Shown: positions 9,797 through 25,252, numbered from the stretch's first letter. The stretch: 61,455 bases of DNA from an uncultured Desulfobacterales bacterium (GCA_964561845.1 CAZLRK010000003.1:1-61455), one strand, 5' to 3'. Numbers and translations: made by a program. The notes: generated from the letters alone by a model not told the origin.

Positions 9797-11344
9797 ATGG
9801 TTATTTCCAACCTTTGGAAAGTTGTTCTAATCGACGATGAAGAAGATATCCGTGAAGTAACAAAAATATCCCTTGAAGACAAGGGGTATACAGTAAACAC
9901 TGCTAAAGACGGTGAGGCAGGAATACAACTGTGCAAAGAGATGTCTCCTCAAATCGTTATCACGGACATTCGCATGCCGAAAATGAACGGAATTCAGGTC
10001 CTCGATACCATAAAAAAGGATGATCCAGATATAGAAGTCATTGTAATTACTGCATTTGGTGAGATGGACCTGGCCATCCAGGCTCTCCAGTTAGACGCTT
10101 CGGATTTTATAACTAAACCGATCAATGATGAAGCGCTTCACCTTGCCTTGAAGCGTGCTCAACACCGCTACACTTCTAAAAAACAACTTAAGGACTACAC
10201 CGCTCTTCTGGAAAAGGAAAAGGCAGAAACCGCCCAAGAGCTGATAAGAACACTGTCTTTCCGAGAAAATCTCATAGAGAGTTCCATGGACGGGATAATA
10301 GGATGTGATGAAAAAGAAAATGTGATTATATTCAACAAAAGCATGGAAAAGATGCTCGGTTATTCCAAAAATGAAGTTTTCAATAAAATGACCCTTGATC
10401 AGTTTTTTTTTCCAGGCGAAGAAATACGGTTCAAAACAGAACTCGCAAGTGAGAAGTATGGTGGGGAAAACCGGCTTTTTCTCTATGAAACTACACTGCT
10501 GGAAAGCTCCGGCCTGACAATTCCCGTTGAAGTTTCGGTCATTGTACTGTTTAACGAGAACAGGGAAGATGGTTTGGTCTGTTTTTTCAGGGACCTTCGT
10601 GAAATCCGGAAACTTGAGCGAGAGGTTGCTGATCAGGCCCGCATACTTCACCAGGACAAAATGATGTCCCTGGGGCGGCTTGCGGCAAGCGTAGTGCATG
10701 AAATTAACAATCCTCTATCCGGAATTCTCAATTATTTGAGGCTTATGGCACGTATTCTGCAACGCGGCACACTAGATGAAAAGCGCCAAAATAAATTTCA
10801 GCAGTATCTAGACCTTGTGGAAAACGAAACGAGTCGTTGTTCTCGGATCATTTCCAACCTTCTTACTTTTTCGCGAAAATCCGCTCCGTCTTTTGAGCAG
10901 GTGCAAATTGACGAACTTTTAAACCGATGCATGCTTCTTAGTCAGCATAAACTTGAGTTGAGCAACATCAACCTTGTTCATTCCATGGAACCGGGAATAC
11001 CTCCTGTACTTGGCGACTTCAACCAACTACAGCAATGTATCATAAATCTTATTTTCAACGCGATTGACGCCATGCCGAATGGGGGAACACTTAATCTTGA
11101 GGGGCGTTGCGATTCTACAACCGGTTTTGTATTTATCAAGGTGAAAGATTCAGGGCCGGGAATTCCCGAGGAGGATATTCCACATATCTTTGAACCCTTT
11201 TTCACCACCAAAAAAGAGGGATATGGGGTAGGGCTCGGACTTTCCACAATTTACGGTATTATGGAACGTCATAAGGGAACCGTGACCATAGAAAACCGGT
11301 CCGGGCAAGGCGCTGCATTTATACTCAAACTTCCTGTAGGATAA
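9797..11344 (+). CDS. Hybrid REC-PAS-histidine kinase
   Basis: RBS AGGAG before ATG 9797; receiver domain, PAS, HEINNP H-box, G1/F/G2 boxes. Confidence 0.92.
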   Translation: MVISNLWKVVLIDDEEDIREVTKISLEDKGYTVNTAKDGEAGIQLCKEMSPQIVITDIRMPKMNGIQVLDTIKKDDPDIEVIVITAFGEMDLAIQALQLDASDFITKPINDEALHLALKRAQHRYTSKKQLKDYTALLEKEKAETAQELIRTLSFRENLIESSMDGIIGCDEKENVIIFNKSMEKMLGYSKNEVFNKMTLDQFFFPGEEIRFKTELASEKYGGENRLFLYETTLLESSGLTIPVEVSVIVLFNENREDGLVCFFRDLREIRKLEREVADQARILHQDKMMSLGRLAASVVHEINNPLSGILNYLRLMARILQRGTLDEKRQNKFQQYLDLVENETSRCSRIISNLLTFSRKSAPSFEQVQIDELLNRCMLLSQHKLELSNINLVHSMEPGIPPVLGDFNQLQQCIINLIFNAIDAMPNGGTLNLEGRCDSTTGFVFIKVKDSGPGIPEEDIPHIFEPFFTTKKEGYGVGLGLSTIYGIMERHKGTVTIENRSGQGAAFILKLPVG

Positions 11345-11383
11345 AGCAGGGATCATATTGTATTTAAAAAGAAACGCCTATTC

Positions 11384-11653
11384 GTAATATTTTAGCTGTT
11401 TGAAAACCAGGTCACTTCAAAGGTAATTAAATTTTAAACCGTGTAAAACTCGCGCATAAGTGAGCGTAAAGAAAGAACAGTGCATGTCTCTTTAATAAAA
11501 CATCAAAGCTATAAATGCCGATTAGCCGTTAACACAAATAATGCAAGCCCCTGTTCTTTCTTAACTCTCACTAATACGCTCAGACAGTTACACGATTAAA
11601 AATTAAACAACCTTTGAAGTTTGACAGTTACTTTTAAAAGGCTAAAATGTTAC
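11384..11653. mobile_element. MITE-like palindromic element, family A copy 1 (270 bp)
   Basis: Termini GTAATATTTTAGC / GCTAAAATGTTAC; flanked by 8-bp direct repeat GCCTATTC (11376-11383, 11654-11661); nested internal inverted repeats. Confidence 0.85.
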
Positions 11654-11678
11654 GCCTATTCAAATTTGAGGAATAAGG

Positions 11679-13430
11679 ATGGCAATAAAAATAGGTAAAC
11701 CCGCCGATCCCAATTTAAGCGTAATTCAGTGTGAGAAATGGATAGAGCTCCTGGATGAATTGAATGTCGGGGCATTCACTGTGGATCTTCACCGTCGGAT
11801 TTCATCCATGAACTTAAACGCTCAGGCGCTTATTGGGATGCGAGAAGTTGAAGTGGTCGGCAGAGATTGTCGTGAAGTCTTTGTAGGGGTCCCCTGTTTA
11901 ACGACTTGCATATTCAGTGAGAAAGTTGATGTTGAAGCAGAAGAGCCTATTGTGGAAATCTTTGACGAAGATGATACCAGACACCTGGTGACACGGATGG
12001 CCACGCCCTTTTACGGACCGGATCGAAATGTGGCAGGATGTTTGACCATACTCCAAGACAACTCACCCATTGCCGACCTTATCAATAGAGTTCACCACGA
12101 AGAACGCAGCCTTAAAATCATTCTTGACAACCTTGATGTGGGTATTTTCACGGTAAACCGTGGAGGGCTCATCACATTTTTTAATAGGGCAGCTGAAAAG
12201 ATTCTTGGTTACAATCGCGGTCAGGTGTTGGGAGAACCCTGTTCAGCAATTTTTGGAGGAGATCAAACGCCTGATATTTGTTTGCTAAAGGCGTCCATAG
12301 AAGACGGCAGCTCGCGCGTTTCTCAGGGCGGAAGGATGTATACCATTGATGATGTATCCATTCCGGTTCGTGCTACTTATATGGCTCTTAAAAACGAAAA
12401 AGGAACCGTTGTAGGAGGGCTTGTTACTTTCCATGATCTCACTTTAATTCGTCAGCTCAACCAGGTAATCAGCGACCGCTATACTTTTTATGACATGATC
12501 GGAAAAAGCCCTGCCATGCAGAATATCTTCGAAATGGTGAATGTGGTATCAGAAAGCGATGCCACGATTCTTATTGAAGGAGATACAGGTACCGGAAAGG
12601 ACCTATTGGCCAAGGTTATCCATTCCGCAGGCAGGCGTTCTGATAAGCATATGATCAAGGTAAATTGTGCGGCAATTCCGGATAATCTTCTTGAATCGGA
12701 ATTATTCGGTTACATCAGGGGGGCATTTACCGGAGCGGATCGGGATAAACCCGGGCGTTTTCAGGAGGCAGACGGAGGAACAATATTTCTGGATGAGATC
12801 GGCGAAATACCTCTTTCCCTTCAGGCTAAACTTTTAAGGGTTTTGGAAGATAAAGAATTTTATCCCCTAGGTGGTCGTAGAACCGTAAAAGTTAATGTAC
12901 GTATTATTTCTGCTACAAACCGTAGTTTGGAAAGGTTGGTGGACGAGCAACTTTTCCGTGAGGATCTCTTTTATCGGCTTAATGTGCTGCGATTAGAGCT
13001 GCCTTCCCTGAAAAATCGACGTGAGGATCTTTCTTTACTTATTTCTCATATAATCAGGAAATTGTGCGTTACAAAAGAGAGCGGGCCACCTGCGATTTCC
13101 CAAAAAACCATGGAAATTTTGCTCAACTATGATTATCCTGGTAATGTCAGGGAACTTGAAAACATTCTTGAACACTCTCTGTTAATCTGTCGTGGCAAGG
13201 AGATAAAGCCTGAACATCTTCCAATTTCTATCCAAAAGCGTTCTGCAATTCACATGCCCGGTATTTCTATCGCTCATATGGTTGCGAGCGGTTCAAATGG
13301 CGGAGAACGAAAAAAGATTCTTCGAGCACTTAAACAATACAACGGGCATAGGGGAAAGACTTCCCGCGCTCTGGGCATGGACCGCACCACCCTTTGGCGA
13401 AAAATGAAAAGGCTCGGTCTTACCTTTTGA
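11679..13430 (+). CDS. PAS-PAS sigma54-dependent transcriptional activator
   Basis: Two PAS domains, GDTGTGKD Walker A, GAFTGA, YPGNVRELEN, C-terminal HTH (LGMDRTTLWRK). Confidence 0.93.
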   Translation: MAIKIGKPADPNLSVIQCEKWIELLDELNVGAFTVDLHRRISSMNLNAQALIGMREVEVVGRDCREVFVGVPCLTTCIFSEKVDVEAEEPIVEIFDEDDTRHLVTRMATPFYGPDRNVAGCLTILQDNSPIADLINRVHHEERSLKIILDNLDVGIFTVNRGGLITFFNRAAEKILGYNRGQVLGEPCSAIFGGDQTPDICLLKASIEDGSSRVSQGGRMYTIDDVSIPVRATYMALKNEKGTVVGGLVTFHDLTLIRQLNQVISDRYTFYDMIGKSPAMQNIFEMVNVVSESDATILIEGDTGTGKDLLAKVIHSAGRRSDKHMIKVNCAAIPDNLLESELFGYIRGAFTGADRDKPGRFQEADGGTIFLDEIGEIPLSLQAKLLRVLEDKEFYPLGGRRTVKVNVRIISATNRSLERLVDEQLFREDLFYRLNVLRLELPSLKNRREDLSLLISHIIRKLCVTKESGPPAISQKTMEILLNYDYPGNVRELENILEHSLLICRGKEIKPEHLPISIQKRSAIHMPGISIAHMVASGSNGGERKKILRALKQYNGHRGKTSRALGMDRTTLWRKMKRLGLTF

Positions 13431-13528
13431 GCGTTACCCACTTTTTACCTTTTGTCTCAGAATTTCAAATCCGTTTATCATGCTTTGCTTATATCAGGCA
13501 TGAACATAGGAGTTTTAACTAAAAAATC

Positions 13529-13640
13529 TGCAACACTATGTTGCAATAATGTTGCGCAACATAGCTATATTAATATAGCTATCCGTTAATTAAACATATT
13601 TAAACTTATCAGGCTGTGTGTTGTTGCACAACATGCAACA
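13529..13640. promoter_or_regulatory. Palindromic upstream activator sites (TGCAACA/TGTTGCA)
   Basis: TGCAACA-CTA-TGTTGCA (13529-13545), TGTTGCGCAACA (13550-13561) and TGTTGCA-CAACA-TGCAACA (13622-13640), 90-200 bp upstream of a sigma54 promoter. Confidence 0.6.
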
Positions 13641-13725
13641 TCTCGCTTGTTTCTTATAAAGCCCCCTCCATGCCTTTCACGTGATAACCTTCTGTAAATA
13701 AAGTATATATTTTATAATTCGATCT

Positions 13726-13741
13726 TGGTATATTATTTGCT
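13726..13741 (+). promoter_or_regulatory. sigma54 (-24/-12) promoter upstream of the Hdr cluster
   Basis: TGGTATATTATTTGCT: GG at 13727-28 and GC at 13739-40 with 10-nt spacing. Confidence 0.65.
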
Positions 13742-13829
13742 ATATAATCAGTATTGGAAATATTCCAATTTCGATATGGATATCATTTTCCCAAATGTGT
13801 CGTATGAATACAAATAAGGGCACTTTGAC

Positions 13830-14270
13830 ATGGCTAAGGAAAGAAAGAGGATTCTGGTAGTAGCTGACGAAGCAGATATTAGGATTTTTTTATCGAACCT
13901 TCTGGATGCACGAGGTTTTGAGCTCATCGAAGCCGGAAATGGAACAGAGGGGTTAAAAATAGCCGAAACAATGAAACCGGCTCTTATCATTCTTGACGTA
14001 ATGATGTCAAATAAAGAAGGTATTCAAGTATACCACAACCTCAAAAAAGATGAGACCTTGAAAATGATTCCCGTTATTATGCTTTCGGCCATAGACCGAA
14101 AGACTTTTTTTCTTTACAAAAAATTTCAGAGCACTCCATCCGGTGCAGGAGTGCCTGAGCCTGAAGCTTATTTGGAAAAACCCCCAGAAGCTGAAGAACT
14201 TATGGGTATAGTTCAGATGCTAACAAAAACAGGTGTAGAAACAATTAAACGAACCTTTGAAGATAGATAG
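13830..14270 (+). CDS. Single-domain response regulator with an atypical acidic pocket
   Basis: ILVVADE (Ala at the first Asp), IILDVMM phospho-Asp, LSA, EKP. Confidence 0.85.
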   Translation: MAKERKRILVVADEADIRIFLSNLLDARGFELIEAGNGTEGLKIAETMKPALIILDVMMSNKEGIQVYHNLKKDETLKMIPVIMLSAIDRKTFFLYKKFQSTPSGAGVPEPEAYLEKPPEAEELMGIVQMLTKTGVETIKRTFEDR

Positions 14271-14340: not shown

Positions 14341-14677
14341 TGTTCGTAAACGTAAACATACACGTGCTCGTGCTCGTGAACGAAAGGAATATGTTTATCA
14401 ATGTTCAATCGAATTTCTCGCTTTAGCGTTTGAAGTTATAGAAAATATTTCAAGAGGGTATTTGTTAATTATAAATGAATATACACAGCAATTCTAATTA
14501 TGGAAAATAAGCCTTATTATAGGAGTGCGTTTAACCATTAAAATCGGCTTTGGAGTATTGGGATGGTGGAGTTCAATTAGCACCTTGCACTAAGTCAATG
14601 CAATCTGGCAATCCGCCAAAATTAGAATTGCTGGAATATACGTTCACGAGCACGAGCACGTATACGTGTACGAGCAC
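14341..14677. repeat. Inverted hexamer-array (GTGCTC/GAGCAC) pair enclosing a decayed ORF
   Basis: Perfect 21-bp inverted repeat acgtgctcgtgctcgtgaacg (14362-14382) / cgttcacgagcacgagcacgt (14641-14661). Confidence 0.8.
14387..14640 (+). pseudogene. Probable remnant of a four-helix-bundle (23S rRNA IVP / bAvd-like) gene
   Basis: Translates to VYQCSIEFLALAFEVIENISRGY, resembling the L-x-V-Y-Q-x-[AS]-I-E-F...P-R-G N-terminus of that family; the frame then hits stops. Confidence 0.5.
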
Positions 14678-14775: not shown

Positions 14776-16128
14776 ATGTCCATAAAAATCGGTTTTTATA
14801 TCTGCCACTGCGGGATTAATATCGCATACAGAGTACGCGTGGAGGAAGTGGCCGCCTTTGCCGGGCAGTTGAAAAACGTTGCAGTAGCCCGTGACTATAA
14901 GTTTATGTGCTCTGATCCCGGGCAGGAAATGATTGAAAAAGACATTAAGGAACTTGATTTGAACCGGGTTGTTGTGGCTTCCTGTTCACCCAGGCTACAT
15001 GAAAAAACATTTCAAGGTGCCTGCCAGAGAGCGGGACTTAACCCTTACAGGTTCCAGATGGCTTCTGTTCGAGAACAGGTTTCATGGGTAACCGAAGACG
15101 AAGACGAAGCCACAAGAAAGGCAAAGAGCCTGATTGCAGGGGCAATCAACAGGGTTAACTTCAATGAAGCCCTGGAAAGCCGTGAAGTAAGTGTTCATCC
15201 TGACATCATGGTGGTGGGAGGCGGCATTGCAGGCATGCAGGCTGCTCTGGATATAGGTGCTTCCGGCCATAAAGCATATTTGGTTGAAAAAGATCCTACA
15301 ATCGGCGGACACATGCTTCAGTTCGACAAGACCTTCCCAACACTCGATTGTGCCGCCTGTATCGGCACACCGAAAATGGTTTCCGTGGCGCAAGATCCTA
15401 ACATTGAATTGCTTTCCTATAGTGAAGTTGAGGAAGTATCTGGATTCATTGGGAACTACAAGGTTAAGACACGAAAGAAACCTCGCTATGTCGACGTAAA
15501 AAAATGCACCGGCTGTGGAGATTGCGCCCAGGCATGTGTTGTTCACAATGTCATTCAATTTCCCGAAAAACCTCCCTTGCCGGTTATGGAACAGGATGAA
15601 GAAAGTGCCCTGAAAGCCACTCTATCGGCCCACGAAAACCGGCAAAGCGACCTCATCGCCATGCTCATAGAAATAAGCGATGAACTCGGATACTTACCTC
15701 GGCCCGTATTGACAAATCTGGCAGACCGGTTGGATATTCCCCTGTCCCACGTTTTTCGAGTGGCTACTTTTTACGCTCAGTTTCGTTTTCAGCCCTTGGG
15801 TAAACATCAAATCATGGTTTGCCAGGGTACTGCCTGTCATGTCCAGGGAAGTAGACGTATTCTGGATGCAGTGATCAAAAAACTTGATATCATGCCAGGT
15901 GAGACCACGCCAGACTTGGAGTTTAGCCTGGACAGGGTGGCTTGTTTTGGTGCATGCGCTCTGGCTCCTGTGGTGGTTGTTGACGATAAGGTTTTTGGAG
16001 GAATGTCTTCCACGAAAACGGAAGAGATTATAGATGAACTTTATACGGGGAAAAAGATTCAGGAACTTACCGTGGTAAAGCAAATCCATGAACCTAAGAT
16101 GGAAACTCATGTTGAGGAACTAAGATGA
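14776..16128 (+). CDS. hdrA: HdrA N-terminal half fused to a NuoE/HydC-like [2Fe-2S] domain
   Basis: ICHCGINI, FMCSDPG, VASCSPRLHE, GGGIAG FAD motif, KTFPTLDCAAC, PRYVD..CTGCGDCAQAC; then NuoE-like VATFYAQF..CQGTAC..CFGAC. Confidence 0.88.
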   Translation: MSIKIGFYICHCGINIAYRVRVEEVAAFAGQLKNVAVARDYKFMCSDPGQEMIEKDIKELDLNRVVVASCSPRLHEKTFQGACQRAGLNPYRFQMASVREQVSWVTEDEDEATRKAKSLIAGAINRVNFNEALESREVSVHPDIMVVGGGIAGMQAALDIGASGHKAYLVEKDPTIGGHMLQFDKTFPTLDCAACIGTPKMVSVAQDPNIELLSYSEVEEVSGFIGNYKVKTRKKPRYVDVKKCTGCGDCAQACVVHNVIQFPEKPPLPVMEQDEESALKATLSAHENRQSDLIAMLIEISDELGYLPRPVLTNLADRLDIPLSHVFRVATFYAQFRFQPLGKHQIMVCQGTACHVQGSRRILDAVIKKLDIMPGETTPDLEFSLDRVACFGACALAPVVVVDDKVFGGMSSTKTEEIIDELYTGKKIQELTVVKQIHEPKMETHVEELR

Positions 16129-19100
16129 AGTTTGAAGAGATAAGAAACAAGGCAATGGTGGAATGGGAAGAATTCGTACTAAAGGATCGAGCTGCAATCC
16201 TTATAGGCGCGGGTACGTGCGGACGAGCTGCGGGCGCACTGGAGGTATTTTCTGCCTTTCAAAGCGAATTGGACAAAAGATCCCTGTCTGACAGGTGCAA
16301 GCTTGTAGCGGTAGGATGCCTGGGGCTATGTTATGCAGAACCGTTGGTGGAGATAAAGGATGAACAGGGAAGGCGCATACTTTATCAAGGCGTAGATCAG
16401 GAAACGGTACCCCAGTTGATTGAATCTCATCTGGGAAAAGGAGAGCCTGTATTGTCAAAGGCTATGGCAGTAATGGAGGGCCAGCCTCTTAATGGTATTC
16501 CGCTTTTTAACGATCTGCCAATGATGCGTCATCAGTTTAGGATTGCGCTTAATAACTGTGGCCAGATTGATCCCACCAATATAAATCACTACATTGCCAG
16601 GGGAGGATACTCTTCTCTGGATCGTGTCCTTTCAATGAACCCTGAAGATGTTATCGACATGGTTGAGACATCACTTTTACGAGGTCGCGGTGGAGCCGGC
16701 TTCCCGACCGGTACCAAATGGCGGTTTTGTCGAAATGCCCCCGGAGATATTCGATATTTGATATGTAATGGAGACGAGGGCGATCCGGGCGCCTTCATGG
16801 ATCGCAGTATCATGGAGGGCGATCCTCATGCAATCATAGAGGGTATGCTGATTGGCGCTTTTGCAATGGATGCAAAGGAAGGAGCCCTTTATGTGCGGGG
16901 TGAGTATCCACTGGCAATCGAGCACCTGAACCAGGCGCTTAACGATGCCAGGGAAATGGGAATATTGGGTAAGAATGTGATGGGCACGGATTTTAACTTT
17001 GAGTTGCACATTGTTCGTAACGCGGGGGCCTTCGTTTCAGGTGAGGAAACAGCTCTTTTGCGTTCGGTGGAAGGAAGTGTTGCTGAGCCAAGGCCTCGAC
17101 CTCCTTTTCCTGCCCAATCAGGTCTTTATGGCCAACCTACATGTATAAACAACGTGGAGACTTGGGCCAATGTCCCTATTATTGTTAAAAAAGGTCCTGA
17201 CTGGTTTAAAAATGTTGGTGTGGAAAAGAATGGGGGAACCAAGTTGTTCAGCCTGGCAGGCAAGGTTAAAAACACGGGCCTGGTTGAGATACCCATGGGA
17301 ACTAGCGTGCGTGATGTTGTCTTCGAAGTTGGCGGCGGCATTCTGGGGGATAATCCCATTAAGGCCGTACAGACCGGAGGTCCATCAGGCGGGTGCATAC
17401 CGGAATCTATGTTAGACTTGCCTTTGACTTACGAGGGTCTAGTAGAAGCAGGGACTATTATGGGATCAGGTGGTATGATTGTTATGGACAGTGAGACATG
17501 CATGGTAGACATAGCTCGGTTCTTCCTGGAGTTTACCACGAAAGAGTCCTGCGGAAAGTGTACACCCTGTCGGGAAGGAACCGAAAAAATGCTTGAAATC
17601 ATGGAACGAATCTGCGCAGGCGAAGCCGAGGAGGATGACATCGCTCTCCTGGAGCGACTTGCTAATGGCGTAGCCGCTACATCGCTGTGCGGTTTGGGCC
17701 AAACCGCTCCGAACCCGGCAAAATCAACCTTGAAATATTTTAAGGAAGAATACCTTGCCCATATAAGGGATAAATATTGCCCTGCAGGCGTTTGCAAAAA
17801 ACTGGTACCGGGTCATTGTCAGAAGGCATGTCCGGCCGGCATTGATGTTCCCAGTTATGTAGCATTAATTGCACATGGGAGGTTTGAAGAGGCTGTTAGG
17901 GTTATTCGCGAGGACAATCCATTCCCCTGGGTCTGTGGCCTTGTTTGCCCAGCTCCATGCGAAAAAGAATGTGAAAGGGGAACGGTGGATAAGCCAATCA
18001 GTATTAGGGTACTTAAAGCCTTTGCGAGTAAATATGTCATGGAAAATCTTGGGAGCTATAAAACCGCCATTAAGACGAAACGGGACGACAAGATCGCCAT
18101 CATAGGTTCAGGACCTGCCGGGCTATCTGCGGCCTACTATCTTGCTATGGAGGGATATAAAATAACTGTCTTTGAAGCCCTTCCAAAAGCGGGTGGAATG
18201 CTGCGTGTGGGTATCCCACCCCATCGTTTGCCGAAAAGTATCCTGGATAAGGAAATAGAAAGCTTTTCAAACCTGGGTATAGAGATAAAAACAAACACAC
18301 CTCTTGGTCCGGACATGACCCTGGAAAACCTCTTTGATCAGAGATTTAAAGCTGTTTATCTTTGCATTGGCGCCCATAAACCCATGCCGCTTCGTATAAA
18401 AGGTGAAGACTCAAACGAAGTGATGCAAGGAGTTACATATCTTAAGAAGTTAAACCTGGGCGAACCCGTTCCTCAAGGAAATAAAGTTGTTGTCATAGGC
18501 GGAGGGAATGTAGCCGTCGATGTTGCGAGATCTGCTGTAAGAAAAGGAGCAGCCAATGTGACGATCTTGTATCGAAGAACTCGTAGAGAAATGCCTGCCT
18601 ATGATACGGAGATCGAAGAGGCCCTTGAAGAAGGTATCAATATAACCTTTCTGTCCGCGCCCGAAGAGATATTGGTAAAAAATAACAAGGTTACAGGGCT
18701 AAGATGTATTAAGATGGAGTTGGGGAAGCCGGATGCTTCAGGGCGCCGCAGGCCGGTTCCTGTTGCCGATTCGCAATATGAAATGGAAGCAGACCTTGTT
18801 TTTCCTGCTATAGGGCAGATCCCTGATACAACCCATTTGAAAGAGATTGAAGGTCTTGAGATGATTAAAGGGGGCACAATTAAGGTAGACCATGAGACCT
18901 TTGCCACAACAGTAAAAGGAGTATTTGCGGGAGGAGATGCGGTAACCGGTCCCGCTACTGTTATTGAAGCCATTTCTGGGGGAAAGAAAGCGGCTCTTTA
19001 CATAGATGCTTTTATTCAAGGAGAAGAAAAACCAAGAAAACCACCGGTGCCTGTAAGAAGAATGAATGTTGAAAAGTTTGAAGTAAGTGAAGAAAAGATG

Positions 19101-19238
19101 GAAAAATTGAAGCGCCCTGAAATTCCCTTACTTCCGATTAAAAAAAGAAAAACAACATTCAAGCAGGTGGAGCTTGGCTTCACAGAAAAGATCGCCTGTG
19201 ATGAGGCCCAGAGATGCCTTCGTTGTGATTTGAGCTGA
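16125..19238 (+). CDS. NuoF/HydB-like FMN/NADH subunit fused to a GltD/NfnB-like FAD/NAD(P)H domain
   Basis: LRGRGGAGFPTG, NGDEGDPGAFMDR, SCGKCTPCREG, SLCGLG; then CQKACPAG..CGLVCPAPCE, GSGPAG, GGGNVA..YRR, RCLRCD. Confidence 0.9.
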   Translation: MKFEEIRNKAMVEWEEFVLKDRAAILIGAGTCGRAAGALEVFSAFQSELDKRSLSDRCKLVAVGCLGLCYAEPLVEIKDEQGRRILYQGVDQETVPQLIESHLGKGEPVLSKAMAVMEGQPLNGIPLFNDLPMMRHQFRIALNNCGQIDPTNINHYIARGGYSSLDRVLSMNPEDVIDMVETSLLRGRGGAGFPTGTKWRFCRNAPGDIRYLICNGDEGDPGAFMDRSIMEGDPHAIIEGMLIGAFAMDAKEGALYVRGEYPLAIEHLNQALNDAREMGILGKNVMGTDFNFELHIVRNAGAFVSGEETALLRSVEGSVAEPRPRPPFPAQSGLYGQPTCINNVETWANVPIIVKKGPDWFKNVGVEKNGGTKLFSLAGKVKNTGLVEIPMGTSVRDVVFEVGGGILGDNPIKAVQTGGPSGGCIPESMLDLPLTYEGLVEAGTIMGSGGMIVMDSETCMVDIARFFLEFTTKESCGKCTPCREGTEKMLEIMERICAGEAEEDDIALLERLANGVAATSLCGLGQTAPNPAKSTLKYFKEEYLAHIRDKYCPAGVCKKLVPGHCQKACPAGIDVPSYVALIAHGRFEEAVRVIREDNPFPWVCGLVCPAPCEKECERGTVDKPISIRVLKAFASKYVMENLGSYKTAIKTKRDDKIAIIGSGPAGLSAAYYLAMEGYKITVFEALPKAGGMLRVGIPPHRLPKSILDKEIESFSNLGIEIKTNTPLGPDMTLENLFDQRFKAVYLCIGAHKPMPLRIKGEDSNEVMQGVTYLKKLNLGEPVPQGNKVVVIGGGNVAVDVARSAVRKGAANVTILYRRTRREMPAYDTEIEEALEEGINITFLSAPEEILVKNNKVTGLRCIKMELGKPDASGRRRPVPVADSQYEMEADLVFPAIGQIPDTTHLKEIEGLEMIKGGTIKVDHETFATTVKGVFAGGDAVTGPATVIEAISGGKKAALYIDAFIQGEEKPRKPPVPVRRMNVEKFEVSEEKMEKLKRPEIPLLPIKKRKTTFKQVELGFTEKIACDEAQRCLRCDLS

Positions 19239-19269
19239 TGGTTTAAAGCTCTAAGAAGGCAAGAGACAG

Positions 19270-19545
19270 GTAATATTTTATCTGTTTGGAAACAAAGTAG
19301 CTTCAAAGGTAATTAAATTTTAAACCGTGTAAAACTCGCGCATAAGTGAGTGTAAAGAAAGAACAGTGCATGTCTTTTAAATAAAACATCTAAGTTATAA
19401 ATGCCGATTAGCCATTAAAACGCATAATGCAAGCCCCTGTTCTTTCTTAACGCTCACTAATACGCTCAGACAGTTACACGGTTAAAAATTAAACAACCTT
19501 TGAAGCTTGCTAGTTCTAATTTTTTTCATAAGGCTAAAATGTTAC
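19270..19545. mobile_element. MITE-like family A copy 2 (276 bp)
   Basis: Near-identical to 11384-11653; 8-bp direct repeat AGAGACAG (19262-19269, 19546-19553). Confidence 0.88.
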
Positions 19546-19579
19546 AGAGACAGAAGTTTTACAGAGAGAGGAGTTATTG

Positions 19580-21394
19580 ATGAATAAGGAAAACATTACA
19601 CTTACCATCGACGGCAATGAGGTGGAGGTGGAGCAGGGCCAGACCCTGCTGACGGCTGCAAAAAAGCTGGGAATCTGGATCCCGACCCTGTGTCATCACG
19701 ATGCTCTGGGACCCCAAGGCGCTTGTCGGCTTTGTCTTGTAGAAGTTGAGATCCAGGGGCGGCGACGTCTGATGGCCAGTTGTGCCTATCCCGTATCCGA
19801 GGGACTCAAGGTTTTTACTGATACGGAAAACGTAATCGAAAATCGCAAGATCGTAGCTGAACTCCTGCTTGCTCGTTGCAGTGAAAACGAGCAAATAAAG
19901 GAATTGTGTGCAAAAATGGGTGTCACTGACACACCTTTTACCAAGAAAAAAGAAGACTGTGTCCTTTGTGGACAGTGTGTACGAATGTGTAACGAAAGAA
20001 TGAAGGTAGGCGCCATAAACTTTATGGGCAGGGGCCAGACACGGAAAGTCGGTACCCCCTATGAAGAGTATTCTGACATATGCCGGACATGTGGCGCATG
20101 CGAGACTGTTTGCCCGACGGGCTGTATCGACGTCCGTGATTCATCAAAGATCGAGCCAAAGCCTCTTACTTCTGATTGGGATGTTGGACTTAAAAAAAGG
20201 TCAGCCGCCTATATTCCGTTTCCACAGGCGGTTCCTCTCTCTTCTGTTATTGATCCCAAGGCCTGTGCGCATGTCCTTACGGATAACTGCGGTGTTTGCA
20301 GGGAATTTTGTGAGGCCGACGCTATTGATTTCGATCAGAAAGAGGAAATTATTGAAATTGATGTGGGCTCGATCATTCTGGCTACAGGGTTTGATTTAAT
20401 GGACCCGGCTCCCATGAAGCAGTTTGGCTATGGCAAGTTTCCCAATGTTTTTACAAGTCTCGAGTTCGAGCGGCTTAGCAATGCAACAGGTCCCACCGGG
20501 GGCAATATTCTAATCAGAGACGAAAACGGCGAACTTACAAAGTCCCCTGAAAGCGTAGCTATTCTCCACTGCATCGGCAGCAGGGATGTGAATTATCATG
20601 AATACTGCTCACGCGTCTGCTGTATGTATGCACTTAAGTATACCCATCTTATCAAGGAAAAGGTCGGGCATGATACTGCTGTCTATGATTTTTATATTGA
20701 TCAGCGTTGCTACGGAAAGGGGTATGAAGAATTTTACGAACGATGCCAGCGGGAAGGAACCACATTCGTTAGGGGTAAAGTAGCTGAAATTACCGACCAG
20801 GCCATTGAGCAAAAAGAGGAAGGCAAGCTTATTGCCATTGCTGAAGACACGCTTTTGGGTATTCGACTACGTGTGCCGGTAGATATGGTGGTCCTGTGTG
20901 CCGCCATAGAGGCTCGCAAGAGCGCCATTGAGGTAGGAAGAATATTCGGTGTTAATCTGGGAGCAGACGGCTTTTTCCTTGAGGAGCATCCTAAGTTAGG
21001 GCCATTAAATACAGCCACGGACGGAGTTTTTCTGGCCGGTGCATGCCAATCTCCTAAGGATATACCAGATACCGTCGCCCAGGCTTCAGGCGCCGCGGCT
21101 AAAGCCCTTTCTTTGGCCGCTCGAGGAAAAGTAGAAGTTCCGTCGACAATCTCTTGGATAGATCCGAATATTTGTGCAGGGTGTCAGACCTGTATTGAAC
21201 TTTGTGCCTACTCTGCAATAGATTTTGACGAACGAAGAGGTGTGTCTGTGATAAACGAGGCTGTCTGCAAAGGGTGCGGGAGTTGCAGCGGATTTTGCCC
21301 CAGTGGCGCGGCCCAGGTTAAACATTTCAAAAAGAAACAAATATTTTCAGAATTCGACGGAATTATTGATGCATTGAATGCCGTGGGAATGTAA
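19580..21394 (+). CDS. hdrA: NuoG/HydA N-terminal Fe-S domains fused to the HdrA C-terminal half
   Basis: IPTLC..GACRLCLVEV..ASC [2Fe-2S], CVLCGQC and CRTCGAC; then AYIPFPQAVP, IILATG, LEFERL, HCIGSRD..YCSRVCCMY, GACQSPKDIP and a C-terminal 2[4Fe-4S] domain. Confidence 0.88.
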   Translation: MNKENITLTIDGNEVEVEQGQTLLTAAKKLGIWIPTLCHHDALGPQGACRLCLVEVEIQGRRRLMASCAYPVSEGLKVFTDTENVIENRKIVAELLLARCSENEQIKELCAKMGVTDTPFTKKKEDCVLCGQCVRMCNERMKVGAINFMGRGQTRKVGTPYEEYSDICRTCGACETVCPTGCIDVRDSSKIEPKPLTSDWDVGLKKRSAAYIPFPQAVPLSSVIDPKACAHVLTDNCGVCREFCEADAIDFDQKEEIIEIDVGSIILATGFDLMDPAPMKQFGYGKFPNVFTSLEFERLSNATGPTGGNILIRDENGELTKSPESVAILHCIGSRDVNYHEYCSRVCCMYALKYTHLIKEKVGHDTAVYDFYIDQRCYGKGYEEFYERCQREGTTFVRGKVAEITDQAIEQKEEGKLIAIAEDTLLGIRLRVPVDMVVLCAAIEARKSAIEVGRIFGVNLGADGFFLEEHPKLGPLNTATDGVFLAGACQSPKDIPDTVAQASGAAAKALSLAARGKVEVPSTISWIDPNICAGCQTCIELCAYSAIDFDERRGVSVINEAVCKGCGSCSGFCPSGAAQVKHFKKKQIFSEFDGIIDALNAVGM

Positions 21395-21438
21395 TCGATT
21401 TTGGATTACGGAAAATGAAAAATAATTTGGAGGAGAGC

Positions 21439-21861
21439 ATGGAAGACTTTGAACCTACTATCATCGCCTTTGTTTGTAACTGGTGTACATACACTGCTGC
21501 AGATTTGGCCGGCACTTCAAGGTTGAGTTACCCTAAAAATGTTCGATTGATTCGTGTCATGTGTACCGGAATGGTAGACCCTCAATATGTAATCAAAGCA
21601 CTTTTGGAAGGGGCTGACGGGGTTCTTGTCAGTGGATGCCGCCCAGGAGATTGCCATTACATTAATGGAAATTTCAAAGCCCGCAGGCGAGTCAAACTCC
21701 TAAAGGAGATTCTTCCTCAATTCGGTTTTGAGCAGGAACGGCTCAGGCTCACCTGGATCGGCGCAAGTGATGGAATCATGTTTGCCGAAATCATGCGGGA
21801 CCTCTCTGCTCAGATGAAAGCACTTGGGCCAAATGAAGCTAAATTAAAAATGGTCATTTAA
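21439..21861 (+). CDS. mvhD: MvhD-like [2Fe-2S] subunit
   Basis: IIAFVCNWCTYTAADLAG, RVMCTG, GADGV..GCRPGDCHY. Confidence 0.92.
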   Translation: MEDFEPTIIAFVCNWCTYTAADLAGTSRLSYPKNVRLIRVMCTGMVDPQYVIKALLEGADGVLVSGCRPGDCHYINGNFKARRRVKLLKEILPQFGFEQERLRLTWIGASDGIMFAEIMRDLSAQMKALGPNEAKLKMVI

Positions 21862-21863
21862 TT

Positions 21864-22135
21864 AAGGGATCGGGGAGTTTTTTTGTTCAATCGCTCCATG
21901 GATAATCATCACGAATAACATACAAACTCATGTATAAGGACTCGTAAAGAAAGAAAAGTGAATGACATATTAATACAATAAATTAGTTAATTGAACAGTT
22001 TTCTTTTTTTAAATTCCATGCAAAACGCTTTTCTTTCTTAACGATTCCTAATACCTTCAAACAGTGTATGCTTTTCGTGACGATCATCCATTCCGCTTAA
22101 AATGGAGATAAAAGAGAAAAACTCCCCGACTACTC
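21864..22135. mobile_element. MITE-like family C element carrying a core homologous to family A
   Basis: Termini tcggggagttttt / aaaaactccccga; flanking direct repeat TCATTTAATTA (21854-21864, 22134-22144); nested inverted repeats. Confidence 0.75.
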
Positions 22136-22211: not shown

Positions 22212-23366
22212 ATGGGAATAACGGCAAAAATTGACGTAAAAGACCAGGAACTTTTAGCATCACTTCATGATTTTTTCAGATCTATCCTTGAGTTGGAAGA
22301 TGTCAGCGCCATTCTGACGCCGCAAAAACTCCCCATGAAAAACATGGTGATGCATACCCTTGTGACAGATCCCGAGCGCCTGAACGGAGTCGATCCACTG
22401 GCGCCGTGCTTTCCCTTAAATGTTGCCAGGGTTGTTGCAAGACTTACCCGTAAACCGATAGGAGGAAAGGTGGCGGCGGTGTTACGTCCATGCGAGATAA
22501 GGGCATTTATTGAGCTGGTTAAGCTCAAGCAGGGAACTGTCGACGATATTGTTTTGATCGGGATTGATTGTTTAGGAGCTTATCGGAATACGGATTATTT
22601 CCGGTTTGTCGGGGAAGACGTGGCCGCATCAACAGGGAGTTTTTATCAAAGTGCCCTTATGGGAAAGACCACCGTCATTGAAGATATCGATTTGGCGCCG
22701 GCCTGCAAAGCATGCGAATATCCCATCCCGACGGGCGCAGATGTTCTGATAGGACTTTTGGGCGTTGACACAAATAAACAGTTGTTGGTTCAATCACGGA
22801 CGCCAAAAGGAGAAGATTTTTTAGCGAACCTCAATCTTTCAAATACAGATGAACCTTTGAAACGCCAAGAAACTATTGATTCTTTAGTTGCCGAACATAA
22901 AGCTTACAGGGAAAATATGTTTACCAAAACCGGTAATATTATCAATAACATAGAAAAGTTGACCACATATTTTGCCAATTGTGTAAACTGTTACAACTGC
23001 AGGGTCGCCTGCCCGGTATGTTATTGCAAAGAATGCGTTTTTGTCACTGATGTTTTTAATCACGATCCTTCACAATATCTGCAGTGGTCCCGGCGCAAGG
23101 GAGCAATTAAGATGCCCACGGATACGGTCTTTTACCACATAACACGTCTGGCTCATATGAGCACGGCCTGTGTCGGGTGCGGCCAGTGTTCTAACGCTTG
23201 TCCTAATGACATCCCGGTAATGGAACTGTTCCGTACTGTGGCGCAACATACACAGAAGGCTTTTGACTATGAGGCAGGCAGAAGCCTTGAGGAAGATCCG
23301 CCTCTTTCCGTTTTCCGTGAGGATGAGTTTGAAGATGTGGTTGGAATATCTGCAAAAATTGCTTAA
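22212..23366 (+). CDS. FdhB/FrhB-like Fe-S protein
   Basis: AVLRPCEIRA, IGIDCLG, ACKAC, CVNCYNCRVACPVCYCKEC, CVGCGQCSNACP. Confidence 0.75.
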   Translation: MGITAKIDVKDQELLASLHDFFRSILELEDVSAILTPQKLPMKNMVMHTLVTDPERLNGVDPLAPCFPLNVARVVARLTRKPIGGKVAAVLRPCEIRAFIELVKLKQGTVDDIVLIGIDCLGAYRNTDYFRFVGEDVAASTGSFYQSALMGKTTVIEDIDLAPACKACEYPIPTGADVLIGLLGVDTNKQLLVQSRTPKGEDFLANLNLSNTDEPLKRQETIDSLVAEHKAYRENMFTKTGNIINNIEKLTTYFANCVNCYNCRVACPVCYCKECVFVTDVFNHDPSQYLQWSRRKGAIKMPTDTVFYHITRLAHMSTACVGCGQCSNACPNDIPVMELFRTVAQHTQKAFDYEAGRSLEEDPPLSVFREDEFEDVVGISAKIA

Positions 23367-23381: not shown

Positions 23382-24701
23382 ATGGGTGAAGTTGCAATCA
23401 AACTTGGAGGTAAAAAAAAGAGTATGTTCATTGACAGGGTTAAGGAGCTCCTTCCCGAGGGAGGGAATCTTAATCTCTGCCTGACATGTGGCGCCTGTTC
23501 TTCGGGATGTCCTGCTACGTCTCTGGATGGGATGGATCCGAGAAAATTTTTGCGCATGGCTGCACTGGGGATGGATAATGAACTCCTCAAATTGGATTGG
23601 ACCTGGATGTGCACGTTATGTCAACGCTGCAGTTATGTTTGTCCCATGAAAATTGATATTCCACAGCTTGTTTTCAATACCCGCGCATCATGGCCAAGGA
23701 AAGATCGCCCAAAGGGTATTCTTGGATCATGTGATATGGCACTGAAAAATGACAGTTGCAGTGCAATGGGCGCAGCCCCTGATGATTTTAAGTTCGTGGT
23801 GGAAGATGTTCTTGAAGAATATCAAGAAACGCAGCCTGAATTCAAAGACATGAAGGCACATGTAAATAAACAGGGGGCCAAATTTTTTCTGAACCAGAAT
23901 TCCAGAGAACCGGTAACCGAGCCGGATGAAATGGTGCCGCTCTGGAAGATTCTCAATCTTGGAGAGGCGGACTGGACATACGGAACAAAGGGTTGGGCTG
24001 CGGAAAATTATTGTATGTTTCTGGCGGACAATGAGAACTGGGAGAACATTGTGCGCATTAAGGCCAAAGCAGTGGAGGAACTTGGTTGTAAAGTCTGGCT
24101 CAATACGGAATGAGGGCACGAACTCTTTGCAGTCCGGGCCGGACTGAAAAAATTTAACATTGATTATAATTTCGAGATAAGGAGCATTATTCAGTATTAT
24201 GCACAGTGGATTCGGGAAGGAAAATTGAAAGTCAATTCAGACTGGAACAAGGACATTAAGGCTAAATTTACGGTACAGGATCCGTGCCAACTGGTGCGAA
24301 AGTCATTTGGAGATCCTGTTGCAGAAGATCTAAGATTTGCTGTTAAATCGGTGATTGGAGAAGAGAATTTTATCGACATGGTTCCCAACAAATCAAACAA
24401 TTACTGCTGCGGCGGCGGAGGGGGTTATCTTCAGTCAGGGTATACCGAGGCGCGTCGTAAATATGGCAAGATCAAGCTGGATCAGGTTCTTCAGACGGGA
24501 GCCGATTATTGCATTACGCCGTGTCACAACTGCCATGCCCAGATTCACGATATGCGTGATCATTATGGAGCAAAATTTCATACGGTTCATTTGTGGACGA
24601 TGATCTGTCTTTCTCTTGGAATACTGGGTCCCAATGAACGTGAATATCTGGGTGATGATCTCAAGGAGGTATTACCTTTTCATCCTGAATCGGCAATGTA
24701 A
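23382..24701 (+). CDS. HdrD/GlpC-like Fe-S + CCG protein with selenocysteine (UGA 24111-24113)
   Basis: ORFs 23382-24113 and 24225-24701 are in frame. Read-through gives NTE-U-GH at the conserved ECGH position. A hairpin follows the UGA; QDPC, YCCGGGGG and PCHNC motifs lie downstream. Confidence 0.88.
24114..24146 (+). promoter_or_regulatory. Putative bacterial SECIS element
   Basis: Stem CAGTCCG (24130-24136) / CGGACTG (24140-24146) with a G-rich apical loop about 24 nt after the UGA. Confidence 0.75.
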
Positions 24702-24990: not shown

Positions 24991-25252
24991 GTAACGTTCA
25001 AAAGTGTTCGTATAATTGTCTTCCAAAATAAATGGGACTCATTGAATAATCATTCGGTAATGCATATTTCCGAAAGACGATATCAATTTACCTAGTAGGA
25101 GGTGATCAAATATTTGGGATTTAACAGACAGTTTCTTTAACACTAGAGCTTATGAGGCGCAAATCCCAAATATTTGATCACTGTGAGCAATCGAGGAATT
25201 ATACAGTGATATCGTCTTTCGGAAACATCCATTACCTTCTCAGATTTAAATG
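24991..25252. mobile_element. MITE-like family B, copy lacking its right end
   Basis: Begins GTAACGTTCAAAAGTGT; about 260 bp collinear with 44510-44805. Confidence 0.8.

Follow-up and report, generated by a model that had tools for sequence, protein, structure and literature searches.

Three consecutive genes in the window, by which we mean the whole 61,455-nucleotide stretch of DNA analysed from an uncultured Desulfobacterales bacterium, encode a split HdrA with a three-gene NAD(P)H module fused into it, an arrangement that is conserved, though apparently not described so far. The N-terminal part of gene 1 has to combine with the C-terminal part of gene 3 to build one HdrA-type FAD domain. 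The two also make up a composite inserted ferredoxin domain, to which gene 1 supplies Cys motif 1 and gene 3 Cys motif 2. Between the HdrA halves is a Bfu/Stn-like module, fused covalently at either end to one half of that ferredoxin domain. Its parts are a [2Fe-2S] domain like HydC, an FMN/NADH core like HydB that bears an NfnL/GltD-like FAD/NADPH domain, and a short chain of clusters resembling BfuA. Four kinds of electron-bifurcating machinery are known, and HdrA and HydABC/Bfu are two of them. To our knowledge their chaining has been shown only recently and for one enzyme only, class II benzoyl-CoA reductase. The locus described here, together with a larger split-HdrA NuoE/F/G family, represents a second natural wiring of HdrA and Bfu.

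Genes 1 and 2 overlap by four bases, genes 2 and 3 are separated by 340 bases and the three products combined comprise 2091 amino acids (Table 1). The ATG of gene 3 at 19580 has GGAG 8 nt upstream. Gene 1 matches positions 1-258 of the NCBIfam HdrA2 profile and then, after a linker of about 25 residues, the PF01257 (NuoE) [2Fe-2S] domain at residues 280-422 (15613-16041). Its HdrA part holds the N-terminal [4Fe-4S] domain, the FAD GxGxxG and, within the inserted ferredoxin domain, the first CxxCxxCxxxC (CTGCGDCAQAC, C244-C254, 15505-15537); the split lies within that domain, directly after this motif. Gene 2 matches PF01512 and PF10589 (NuoF) at residues 181-546 and PF14691 and PF07992 (GltD) at 557-953. 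Gene 3 starts with a BfuA/NuoG N-part ([2Fe-2S] plus 2x[4Fe-4S], 19589-20143), detected as PF13510 at residues 5-83 and a 2x[4Fe-4S] domain at 128-183, and continues with HdrA2 profile positions 244-641. This HdrA C-part (20171-21367; DWDVGL begins at 20174, residue 200 when numbered from the TTG) completes the inserted ferredoxin domain with the second Cys motif, supplies what gene 1 lacks of the FAD domain and adds the C-terminal 2[4Fe-4S] domain. A preliminary description had read the genes in the same way, namely HdrA to the first ferredoxin motif followed by NuoE, NuoF with a GltD-like domain, and NuoG-N with HdrA resuming near 20174, and its coordinates and motifs are exact to the base. 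Its overall interpretation is partly supported: the split HdrA and the domain set stand, and its idea of two bifurcating modules is only plausible.

Table 1. Features of the locus (window coordinates).
Feature	Position	Strand	Size	Remarks
Hybrid receiver/PAS histidine kinase, PAS sigma-54 activator, stand-alone receiver protein	9764-14270	+		Upstream regulators
Gene 1	14776-16128	+	450 aa	HdrA N-part (aa 1-257) and NuoE/HydC/BfuC domain
Gene 2	16125-19238	+	1037 aa	HydB/NuoF core and GltD/NfnL-like NADPH-FAD domain
Palindromic MITE-like repeat	19290-19500		211 bases	Gene 2-gene 3 spacer; nested inverted arms; not part of the enzyme
Gene 3	19577/19580-21394	+	605/604 aa	Short NuoG/BfuA N-part and remaining HdrA
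MvhD-like [2Fe-2S] adaptor	21415-21861	+		PF02662, E 6e-53; place after HdrA C-part kept in related loci
FrhB/FdhB-like Fe-S (flavo)protein	22212-23366	+		After MvhD in related loci, 50-75% identity
HdrC-like gene	23382-24113	+		With HdrB-like neighbour in a subset of related loci only
Short HdrB-like gene	24225-24701	+		One CCG domain; with HdrC-like neighbour in a subset of related loci only
Second HdrA	from 25250	+	1166 aa	Two TrxR-like units and embedded receiver domain; conserved in related loci
HdrC after second HdrA	28777-29355	+		Second HdrA-HdrC-HdrB block (25250-30221) conserved in related loci
HdrB after second HdrA	29358-30221	+		Same conserved block

The HdrA halves are not a single polypeptide; they occupy two ORFs 3.4 kb apart with gene 2 in between. 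Alignment to the solved HdrA 5odc_A places gene 1 residues 4-257 on residues 5-259 and gene 3 residues 199-597 on residues 262-650, so that the halves are exactly complementary with no part missing. Only both chains combined provide the full HdrA domain set, colinear with 5odc_A residues 5-650, and each half alone falls far under the NCBIfam HdrA cut-offs (350 and 419 bits against 1100). The FAD motif, the cluster cysteines and the flavin-N5-lysine position are all present across genes 1 and 3. In an alignment of 48 sequences for gene 1, with homologues of 44-85% identity, the invariant residues include C10, C12, C45, C70, G148, G150, G153, C192, C195, C244, C247, C250, C254, C349, C354, C390 and C394. 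All 24 listed Cys ligands of gene 3 are invariant in 52 sequences covering the same identity range, as is K353, which by our count in the alignment falls on 5odc_A K409, which we take to be the lysine at flavin N5. The equivalent Lys280 of BamE is called a hallmark residue in a preprint on class II benzoyl-CoA reductase (10.64898/2026.04.10.717634).

A structure model of the complex gave an ipSAE of 0.91 (median of three runs) against 0.00 for the best control, passing a mark that 58 of 80 solved complexes attain, as do 2 of 110 mismatched pairs. The three runs have at least 93% of contacts in common, with partner pLDDT of at least 89, and the interface takes in gene 1 residues 243-261 and gene 3 residues 226-251. 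The model supports one fold for the halves, with the caveat that HdrA structures are already solved, so the pass may be memory and likeness is all it shows. Complementarity, invariant ligands and the model together uphold the proposal that the HdrA FAD domain and its inserted 2[4Fe-4S] domain need two polypeptides.

The best solved matches of gene 2 are BfuB chains of bifurcating enzymes (7t2r_B, 9n5u_B, 8oh5_B). Residues 22-562 align with residues 5-541 of the 597 in 7t2r_B, the HydB/NuoF FMN-NADH core with the B1 [4Fe-4S] cluster spanning residues 149-547. Ahead of this core residues 22-100 form a putative thioredoxin-like N-domain, which aligns to 7t2r_B from residue 5 and gives a weak PF01257 match (E 0.002). 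The BfuC [2Fe-2S] cluster (C1), the BfuB FMN/NADH site and the B1 cluster are present, as judged from PF01257, PF01512 and PF10589 and from the invariant C349, C354, C390 and C394 of gene 1. The GltD/NfnL-like 2[4Fe-4S] and FAD/NADPH domain covers residues 557-965, includes GGGNVA...YRR and is followed by a C-terminal tail that ends RCLRC; residues 565-1035 align with 9bov_A, 9n5u_A (residues 105-594) and 8oh5_C. The GltD part also carries GXGXXA, read as a sign of NADP preference in PMC12054007. These matches to BfuB chains and NfnL-like parts bear out the earlier assignment of the inserted genes to the Stn/NfnABC domain set. However, gene 2 is without the HydB C-terminal ferredoxin domain (B3/B4), the place where bifurcating Bfu enzymes bind ferredoxin, since the 7t2r_B alignment stops at 541 of 597 and the GltD Fer4_20 region follows instead. 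Known Bfu enzymes are therefore no guide to how the module behaves or to whether it bifurcates by itself.

The operon is a cluster known from sulfate reducers, HdrL / MvhD / FdhB-like / HdrA / HdrBC, in which another cassette has taken the central place. The HdrL-operon order (MvhD, FdhB-like Fe-S protein, second HdrA, HdrC/HdrB) is present downstream and recurs in related loci, which are HdrL-type in 57 of the 66 scorable rows. The gene order also matches Sfum_0819-0824 as set out in PMC5947623, according to which the HdrABC/HdrL proteins of S. fumaroxidans are abundant only with sulfate. A profile scan of the three genes and 16 neighbouring ORFs found no hydrogenase or formate-dehydrogenase catalytic domain, as had been stated before, and no dsrC or dsrAB was noted among the 16 neighbours. 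The sigma-54 promoter consensus gave 58 matches where 49 are expected, with nothing convincing upstream of gene 1.

Comparison with HdrL is the most direct. HdrL proteins carry a GltD insert (PMC2702500), an earlier claim that the HdrL loci compared here confirm, and HdrL of Desulfobacterium autotrophicum and Syntrophobacter fumaroxidans corresponds to a 'type III HdrA' with this insert (PMC2702500, PMC5947623, PMC12054007). A genome of the same genus as the window (G001) has an unsplit HdrL of 1129 residues, with GltD insert, at the same locus. The two share the HdrA core (92-96% identical), the operon (MvhD, FdhB-like protein, second HdrA, HdrCB) and an NAD(P)H-binding flavoprotein domain within the inserted ferredoxin domain. 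HdrL, however, is one polypeptide with GltD only, whereas the window has three polypeptides, places GltD on a separate chain and adds HydC-, HydB- and BfuA-like parts. The insertion sites differ also. In HdrL the GltD domain precedes Cys motif 2, about 35 residues downstream of the split in the window, which comes right after motif 1; this was checked in the HdrL of G001 and in a second HdrL (locus L011, Fer4_20 from residue 291). The cassette is therefore not HdrL with extras.

Stn/NfnABC (Nfn-Bfu; 8oh5, 9n5u), among the best solved matches of the module, likewise combines a HydC-like subunit, a HydB-like FMN/NADH subunit, a [2Fe-2S] N-domain and an NfnL/GltD-like FAD/NADPH domain. Those enzymes carry the NfnL-like domain on BfuA and retain the ferredoxin-binding C-terminal domain of BfuB; in the window that C-terminal domain has given way to the NfnL-like domain, only a short BfuA is present, and the module runs into an HdrA half at each end. 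Class II benzoyl-CoA reductase BamBCDEFGHI (Bam-Bfu) unites HydBC-type BamGHI and HdrA-type BamE in one complex, with an MvhD-like BamF and an HdrBC-like BamD, as described in PMC9304861 and the preprint. By the same accounts Bam is made of separate subunits, among them BamE, a fused HdrA dimer that is not split, and BamI feeds the C-terminal ferredoxin domain, the inserted ferredoxin domain being the exit to the tungsten enzyme. The window is without BamB and BamC, and here the inserted ferredoxin domain is where the module attaches.

A database family of split HdrA with a NuoE/NuoF/NuoG-N cassette and no GltD has the same split site and the same two fusion genes, annotated for example as 'NAD(P)H-dependent oxidoreductase subunit E' and '2Fe-2S iron-sulfur cluster-binding protein'. 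It differs in that NuoF keeps a Fer4 C-terminal domain, as seen in L003 and L008, and in L008, L014 and L033 the HdrA N-part (277-285 residues) and NuoE are separate genes. Loci of this family occur in Desulfobacterota, Verrucomicrobiota and Cloacimonadota and, by source names, also in Planctomycetota, Gemmatimonadota, Spirochaetales, Promethearchaeota, Syntropharchaeia and others. The GltD-less cassette is commoner than the GltD form of the window and its database family much larger.

The architecture could in principle be an assembly chimera joined at a repeat, or the remains of an HdrL gene destroyed when a foreign operon inserted into it, and we regard either as very improbable. A palindromic repeat, overlooked in the preliminary description, is placed between genes 2 and 3, where it explains the long gap, and it has at least 40 copies of 89-97% identity in the genome of the window. 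Contigs from public runs break inside it, where depth reaches 992 and 3916 against about 7 and 15 in the flanks, no contig in four public runs bridges genes 2 and 3, and the cassette is absent from two same-genus genomes, all of which favours such an explanation. Against it, both fusion junctions lie inside uninterrupted ORFs, and depth differs little from one side of the repeat to the other (15.2 and 16.6; 7.2 and 6.4). The genome has no other gene-1-like or gene-3-like fusion, the next matches to the HdrA parts being at most 43% and 40% identical. The same three genes also occur together elsewhere: MBC8466886, MBC8466887 and MBC8466888, consecutive NCBI accessions from another MAG, correspond to genes 1, 2 and 3, and homologues of all three are common to assemblies with longest contigs of 308746, 13899, 7514 and 7045. 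Recurrence in other assemblies thus answers the suspicion of a chimera raised at the outset. Decay, seen as relaxed selection on the halves, was not found; compared with the same-genus HdrL the N-part is 95.7% identical (dN/dS 0.058) and the C-part 92.2% (dN/dS 0.078), indicating strong purifying selection, and the cofactor ligands are invariant. The cassette arrangement is conserved, neither chance nor artefact. RNA-library contigs cover parts of all three genes at 99-100% identity, a weak support given that DNA may be present in such libraries; stretches of the locus lacking such contigs carry no information either way.

We consider the chances about even that the three genes encode one flavin/iron-sulfur complex acting as an NAD(P)H-linked, HdrL-type heterodisulfide/DsrC reductase. 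The module would replace free ferredoxin at the ferredoxin arm of HdrA. NADH at the FMN and NADPH at the GltD FAD would supply electrons, which the BfuA-like clusters and then the composite ferredoxin domain would carry to the HdrA FAD. From there one path would lead to HdrBC-type subunits, reducing DsrC or another disulfide. A second would run via the C-terminal ferredoxin domain and MvhD and have the FdhB-like protein, the second HdrA or ferredoxin as its acceptor. A comparable role has been proposed for type III HdrA, whose GltD insert would block ferredoxin access and feed electrons from NADH via the inserted ferredoxin domain (PMC12054007).

The direction of flow might be the reverse, a doubtful but not negligible proposition. 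Electrons would then enter from the FdhB-like protein through MvhD and the C-terminal ferredoxin domain, the HdrA FAD would bifurcate and the low-potential electron would exit into the module, to be used with NADH in making NADPH or NADH; the assembly would join Hdr to an Nfn/Stn-type transhydrogenase and dispense with ferredoxin. In methanogen HdrA and in BamE alike, low-potential electrons leave by the inserted ferredoxin domain and do not enter there (preprint 10.64898/2026.04.10.717634), and this counts against entry at that point. Stand-alone NuoE / NuoF-GltD / short NuoG-N operons at 13 loci (L081-L093) imply that the module is probably an enzyme in its own right dealing with ferredoxin, and it is its ferredoxin-type end that is fused to the ferredoxin domain of HdrA. 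On the other hand the operon offers no donor-specific hydrogenase or formate dehydrogenase catalytic subunit for mid-potential electrons, HdrL/type III HdrA is published as taking NAD(P)H as donor (PMC2702500 and PMC12054007), and delivery of -500 mV electrons to NAD(P)+ squanders energy if no second bifurcation comes after it. Less likely again is a double bifurcation like that of class II benzoyl-CoA reductase, in which the module confurcates NADH and reduced ferredoxin and HdrA bifurcates again to reach very low potential. The same two module types are coupled in that enzyme, according to the preprint, and the commoner GltD-less cassette keeps a full HydB with ferredoxin-binding C-terminal domain. 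In the window, however, GltD has replaced this domain, no tungsten enzyme or other low-potential catalytic subunit is encoded in the 16 neighbouring ORFs scanned, and the module is attached at the other HdrA door: the HydBC-like module of the reductase enters via the C-terminal ferredoxin domain and an MvhD-like subunit, according to the same preprint. Plausibility by this precedent, set against the missing ferredoxin-binding domain and the different HdrA ferredoxin domain used, is where the earlier idea of two bifurcating modules now stands.

The fusion points reveal which ends touch, the module being tied to the ferredoxin-reducing arm of HdrA, and the locus is a rare, clean case of a gene split through in-frame operon insertion. 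Two species of one genus with a 92-96% identical HdrA core, one with a GltD cassette and the other with three genes, constitute a natural experiment through which the part played by HdrL-type complexes in sulfate reducers can be tested directly. Against the same-genus HdrL the two ferredoxin-domain pieces reach an identity of only about 55%, so the inserted ferredoxin domain travels with the cassette. A wider and tentative reading, one we would not expect to hold in full, is that the inserted ferredoxin domain of HdrA serves as a plug-in socket, into which redox modules up to a complete three-gene Bfu/Stn-type operon may be inserted in frame and exchanged as cassettes. They would swap together with the cluster-binding halves of the socket, even between species of one genus. 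The window would then represent a hard-wired three-flavin chain, in which FMN, GltD-FAD and HdrA-FAD, free of ferredoxin, might couple NADH, NADPH and a disulfide (DsrC) through two linked bifurcation sites, using an HdrA door unlike that of class II benzoyl-CoA reductase.

We considered the form in the window as an intermediate between a NuoEFG cassette and HdrL and dropped the idea. The insertion sites differ, and the GltD of gene 2 is no closer to the GltD of HdrL (41-52% identity) than to that of stand-alone NuoF-GltD proteins (39-52%).

With a query spanning the junction, 198 of 400 other genomes of the order gave matches, a count that cannot stand for the architecture of the window since most full-span matches are frames of about 1090 residues; in the one examined (G007) NuoG-N is joined to an HdrA-like protein with two TrxR units, and no HdrA-N/NuoE gene adjoins it. 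In another genome (G395), at a locus with no gene-3-like ORF, HdrC and HdrB precede a 166-residue HdrA N-fragment, NuoE, NuoF-GltD and then regulators. No relative of gene 2 above 57% identity was found in the species-representative genomes and JGI metagenomes scanned. Among 400 genomes of the order the closest NuoF-GltD is 61% identical (G262) and belongs to a stand-alone NuoE/NuoF-GltD/NuoG-N set.

The stretch 14776-21394 of the window is occupied by three ORFs, all in the same direction. The preliminary description had read them as HdrA split in two by a NuoE / NuoF-GltD / NuoG-N module, and its coordinates and motifs proved exact when the ORFs, profile matches and motif positions were checked. 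Genes 1 and 2 overlap by four bases, and the most likely start of gene 3 is an ATG preceded by GGAG. There is also a weak thioredoxin-like match at aa 22-100 of gene 2. Alignment with a solved HdrA (5odc_A) bears out the split; residues 5-259 correspond to gene 1 aa 4-257 and residues 262-650 to gene 3 aa 199-597. At the level of sequence the two HdrA parts are exactly complementary. The split point lies within the inserted ferredoxin domain of HdrA, immediately 3' of the first Cys motif. Gene 1 carries the FAD dinucleotide fold (GGGIAG). Gene 3 carries the SDWDVGL...PFPQAVP stretch, the lysine that aligns with Lys409 of 5odc_A, the second Cys motif of the form C-x8-C-x2-C-x3-C and the flavin motif DGVFLAGA of the C-terminal side.

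Features of the split hdrA region and related elements in the window
Feature	Position (strand)	Product	Content
Second copy of 211-base repeat	11404-11614		Upstream of sigma-54 activator
Stand-alone receiver domain	13830-14270
Excess-depth spacer	14361-14661 region		Perfect 21-base inverted repeat, 14361-14381 / 14641-14661, arms ~260 bases apart
Gene 1	14776-16128	450 aa	NCBIfam HdrA2 profile positions 1-258, then PF01257 (NuoE) aa 280-422
First Cys motif	15505-15537		CxxCxxCxxxC, gene 1
Gene 2	16125-19238	1037 aa	NuoF FMN and [4Fe-4S] domains aa 181-546; GltD-type Fer4_20 and pyridine-nucleotide oxidoreductase domains aa 557-953
211-base repeat	19290-19500		Palindromic, MITE-like
Gene 3	19580-21394		[2Fe-2S] Fer2_4 domain, 2x[4Fe-4S] domain, then HdrA2 profile positions 244-641
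Excess-depth spacer	~21780-22000
Downstream genes, in order			MvhD, FrhB/FdhB-like Fe-S protein, HdrC, short HdrB, two-TrxR HdrA, HdrC, HdrB
Two-TrxR HdrA	25250-28750 (+)	1166 aa	Type II / BamE-like; receiver domain aa 212-322
Second Bfu-like gene set	56142-61275 (-)

The best matches of gene 2 aa 22-562 are the BfuB chains of solved HydABC-type bifurcating (Bfu) enzymes (7t2r_B, 9bov_B, 9n5u_B, 7q4v_B and 8oh5_B). The aligned region ends ahead of the C-terminal ferredoxin domain of these chains. Residues 565-1035 match the NfnL-like part of 9bov_A, NfnA (9n5u_A) and the Stn transhydrogenase subunit 8oh5_C, and the N-terminal part of gene 3 is closest to a short BfuA-like chain, 9mqx_A. Stand-alone NuoE / NuoF-GltD / short NuoG-N operons occur at 13 loci (L081-L093), and other loci have the canonical Stn order, in which NuoG-N carries GltD. 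Given these matches and the stand-alone operons, the window looks like such a three-gene operon placed in frame into hdrA. The GGGNVA sequence of gene 2 fits GXGXXA, a motif taken as NADP-preferring in PMC12054007. HdrL, a one-polypeptide HdrA with a GltD insert, provides a comparison. There GltD is inserted past the EWDVGL...PQAVP stretch and ahead of the second Cys motif, whereas the split type is cut ahead of that stretch, so that each cassette has its own insertion site within this one domain.

In a genome of the same genus that is 65% complete (G001), the equivalent position is taken by an HdrL of 1129 aa that is not split. Gene 1 aa 1-231 shares 95.7% identity with it (dN/dS 0.058) and gene 3 aa 244-604 shares 92.2% (dN/dS 0.078), values that indicate strong purifying selection on both HdrA halves, with no sign of relaxation. 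The ferredoxin-domain pieces beside the insert are only about 55% identical, so that domain is part of the exchanged cassette. A second genome of the genus, 95% complete (G002), gave no counterpart with these queries. When gene 3 aa 186-604 was modelled with FAD and gene 1 aa 1-268, the halves were predicted to form one fold, as the preliminary description supposed, with an ipSAE of 0.91, where the best-scoring of three controls had 0.00; since HdrA structures are already solved, this score shows likeness to HdrA and not binding. Of 80 solved complexes 58 reach this ipSAE mark, as do 2 of 110 mismatched pairs. The runs had at least 93% of contacts in common and partner pLDDT was 89 or more, the predicted contacts joining Cys-motif region to Cys-motif region and flavin-fold strands to flavin-fold strands.

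Genes 2 and 3 are separated by 340 bases that contain the 211-base repeat, which is present at least 40 times in this 4.3-Mb genome, its copies being 89-97% identical. No contig bridging the two genes was found in four public runs, whose contigs all break within the repeat, so these runs give no independent bridge between the two genes in this organism. Contig depth on either side of the repeat agrees in the public runs (15.2 and 16.6; 7.2 and 6.4). Two further operon spacers show a 4- to 10-fold excess of contig depth, and it seems that small repeats land in the spacers of this operon.

How is this cassette distributed? Our locus sample comprised 83 rows, namely the best 80 of 437 confirmed relatives found with gene 1, a further locus (L154), G001 and the window; since its members were picked for their resemblance to gene 1, it does not amount to a census. 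Both HdrA parts were present in 66 rows, which were typed, and 17 truncated rows were left out. The GltD insert alone (HdrL, ~1137 aa) accounts for 57 of the 66 and NuoE/NuoF/NuoG-N without GltD for six. Two are odd forms and one, the window, combines NuoE/F/G-N with GltD. Two-component and sigma-54 regulators lie upstream of gene 1, and HdrL loci share the downstream operon of the window. That operon corresponds to the HdrABC/HdrL cluster of S. fumaroxidans, detected with sulfate only (PMC5947623). At three loci (L008, L014 and L033) a free-standing HdrA N-part of 277-285 aa lies beside a separate NuoE, so the covalent link to NuoE is dispensable. A tree computed from the HdrA core without the cassette puts the window and the G001 HdrL in one group (SH-aLRT 99). 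Four changes of the split label are needed on this tree, and well-supported branches force at least three of them; shuffled labels require 6.8 on average, and in 500 shuffles a count as low as four was never reached.

Other cassettes occupy the same site. Locus L001 has HdrA-N (268 aa), NuoE (168 aa), a 120-aa ORF and a 676-aa protein that joins a partial GltD to HdrA-C. At L005, HdrA-N (278 aa) is accompanied by a [2Fe-2S] protein of 104 aa and by a protein of 501 aa that joins Fer4 to HdrA-C. L285 (G355:C61:2480-8479) is a four-gene split locus (HdrA-N, NuoE, NuoF, NuoG-N+HdrA-C) in which HdrA-N has an N-terminal extension of ~300 aa. Its contig, of 73,995 bp, has the same size as that of L012, bearer of an HdrL operon, and they may be one and the same contig. 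In that case the split locus is near the start with HdrL about 52 kb away (L012 being 11828-32598, reversed), and a single genome holds both types of cassette. At L282 (G395:C1:33000-39000) the order is HdrC, HdrB, a 166-aa HdrA fragment with only the FAD fold and first Cys motif, NuoE, NuoF-GltD and then regulators; a 1075-aa NuoG-N+HdrA-like ORF lies ~22 kb off on the same contig. Across the order NuoG-N is very often fused to ~1090-aa two-TrxR HdrA-like proteins beside NuoF. In the one example examined (L284, G007:C40) no HdrA-N/NuoE gene was seen beside the NuoG-N+HdrA-like fusion. By hand count, about 121 of the 400 other genomes searched in the order contain full-span matches to the junction query, and these are mostly in frames of ~1085-1100 aa.

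Both kinds of fusion gene are abundant. Gene 1 gave at least 8000 scored relatives. Among the 120 listed most combine HdrA-type FAD families with PF01257 in ~420-465 aa, under source names that include Deltaproteobacteria, Planctomycetes, Gemmatimonadota and Spirochaetales. The first 330 residues of gene 3, which bear the junction, gave 5858; most of the 120 listed are ~585-605 aa, with names including Promethearchaeota, Syntropharchaeia, Anaerolineae and Eremiobacterota. When 48 homologues of gene 1 and 52 of gene 3 are aligned, every cofactor ligand is invariant and the split site is identical throughout. The architecture also recurs as a set. GltD-on-NuoF proteins resemble gene 2 at 82-94% identity, and the consecutive NCBI accessions MBC8466886, MBC8466887 and MBC8466888 are gene-1-, gene-2- and gene-3-like. 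This is a stronger sign than the longest-contig sizes (308746, 13899, 7514 and 7045) common to assemblies with homologues of all three genes, which is indirect. Searches of the window's own genome with the gene queries recovered neither a further gene-1-like fusion nor a further gene-3-like one. Contigs from RNA libraries, which can contain DNA, cover parts of each of the three genes. The split-HdrA family is common in databases under misleading names, the GltD-bearing form of the window being a rarer sub-variant.

Beyond composition, split, conservation, cassette exchange and operon, we infer a route for the electrons. By analogy, there is about an even chance that NAD(P)H electrons would enter HdrA through the composite inserted ferredoxin domain. 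This is the same reading as that proposed for type III HdrA, the equivalent of HdrL, where the GltD insert was suggested to block ferredoxin and feed NADH electrons via the inserted domain (PMC12054007). The main rival is the reverse, with low-potential electrons from HdrA passed to the Nfn/Stn-like module without free ferredoxin; in methanogen HdrA and BamE the inserted ferredoxin domain is the low-potential exit (preprint 10.64898/2026.04.10.717634). We consider this direction rather unlikely for the window. Double bifurcation of the kind seen in class II benzoyl-CoA reductase (Bam) is more doubtful still. In that enzyme, according to the same preprint, HydBC-like BamGHI supplies BamE by way of the C-terminal ferredoxin domain and BamF. 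Entry through the inserted ferredoxin domain is the reading we favour.

HdrL, first so named in D. autotrophicum (PMC2702500), type III HdrA and Bam-Bfu are already described in the portions of literature covered. Within those portions we came across no account of an HdrA that a cassette of the NuoE/F/G type splits, with the caveat that a 2021 BBA review of HdrA modules may mention one. The Bfu family paper (PMC9304861) has no such type in two of the three parts of its classification section, though its supplementary tables may. A gene list for Desulfotignum phosphitoxidans in PMC4046663 reads 'nuoEFGmvhD; nuoGEFmvhDhdrA'.

The second Bfu-like set in the window comprises a HydB-like protein of 593 aa that has its C-terminal ferredoxin domain, a short BfuA-like protein of 273 aa and a GltD-type protein of 718 aa; the NuoE-like gene may be located past the end of the window. 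The 1166-aa HdrA, kept at 50-75% identity in most related Desulfobacterota loci, carries its response-regulator receiver domain just past the ferredoxin motifs. Receiver domains recur near these enzymes, in the stand-alone protein of the window, in a 718-aa database protein that joins a receiver to HdrA-N and NuoE (P0023) and in a double-receiver protein beside NuoF in another genome of the order (G007), which hints at direct phospho-control of an Hdr complex.
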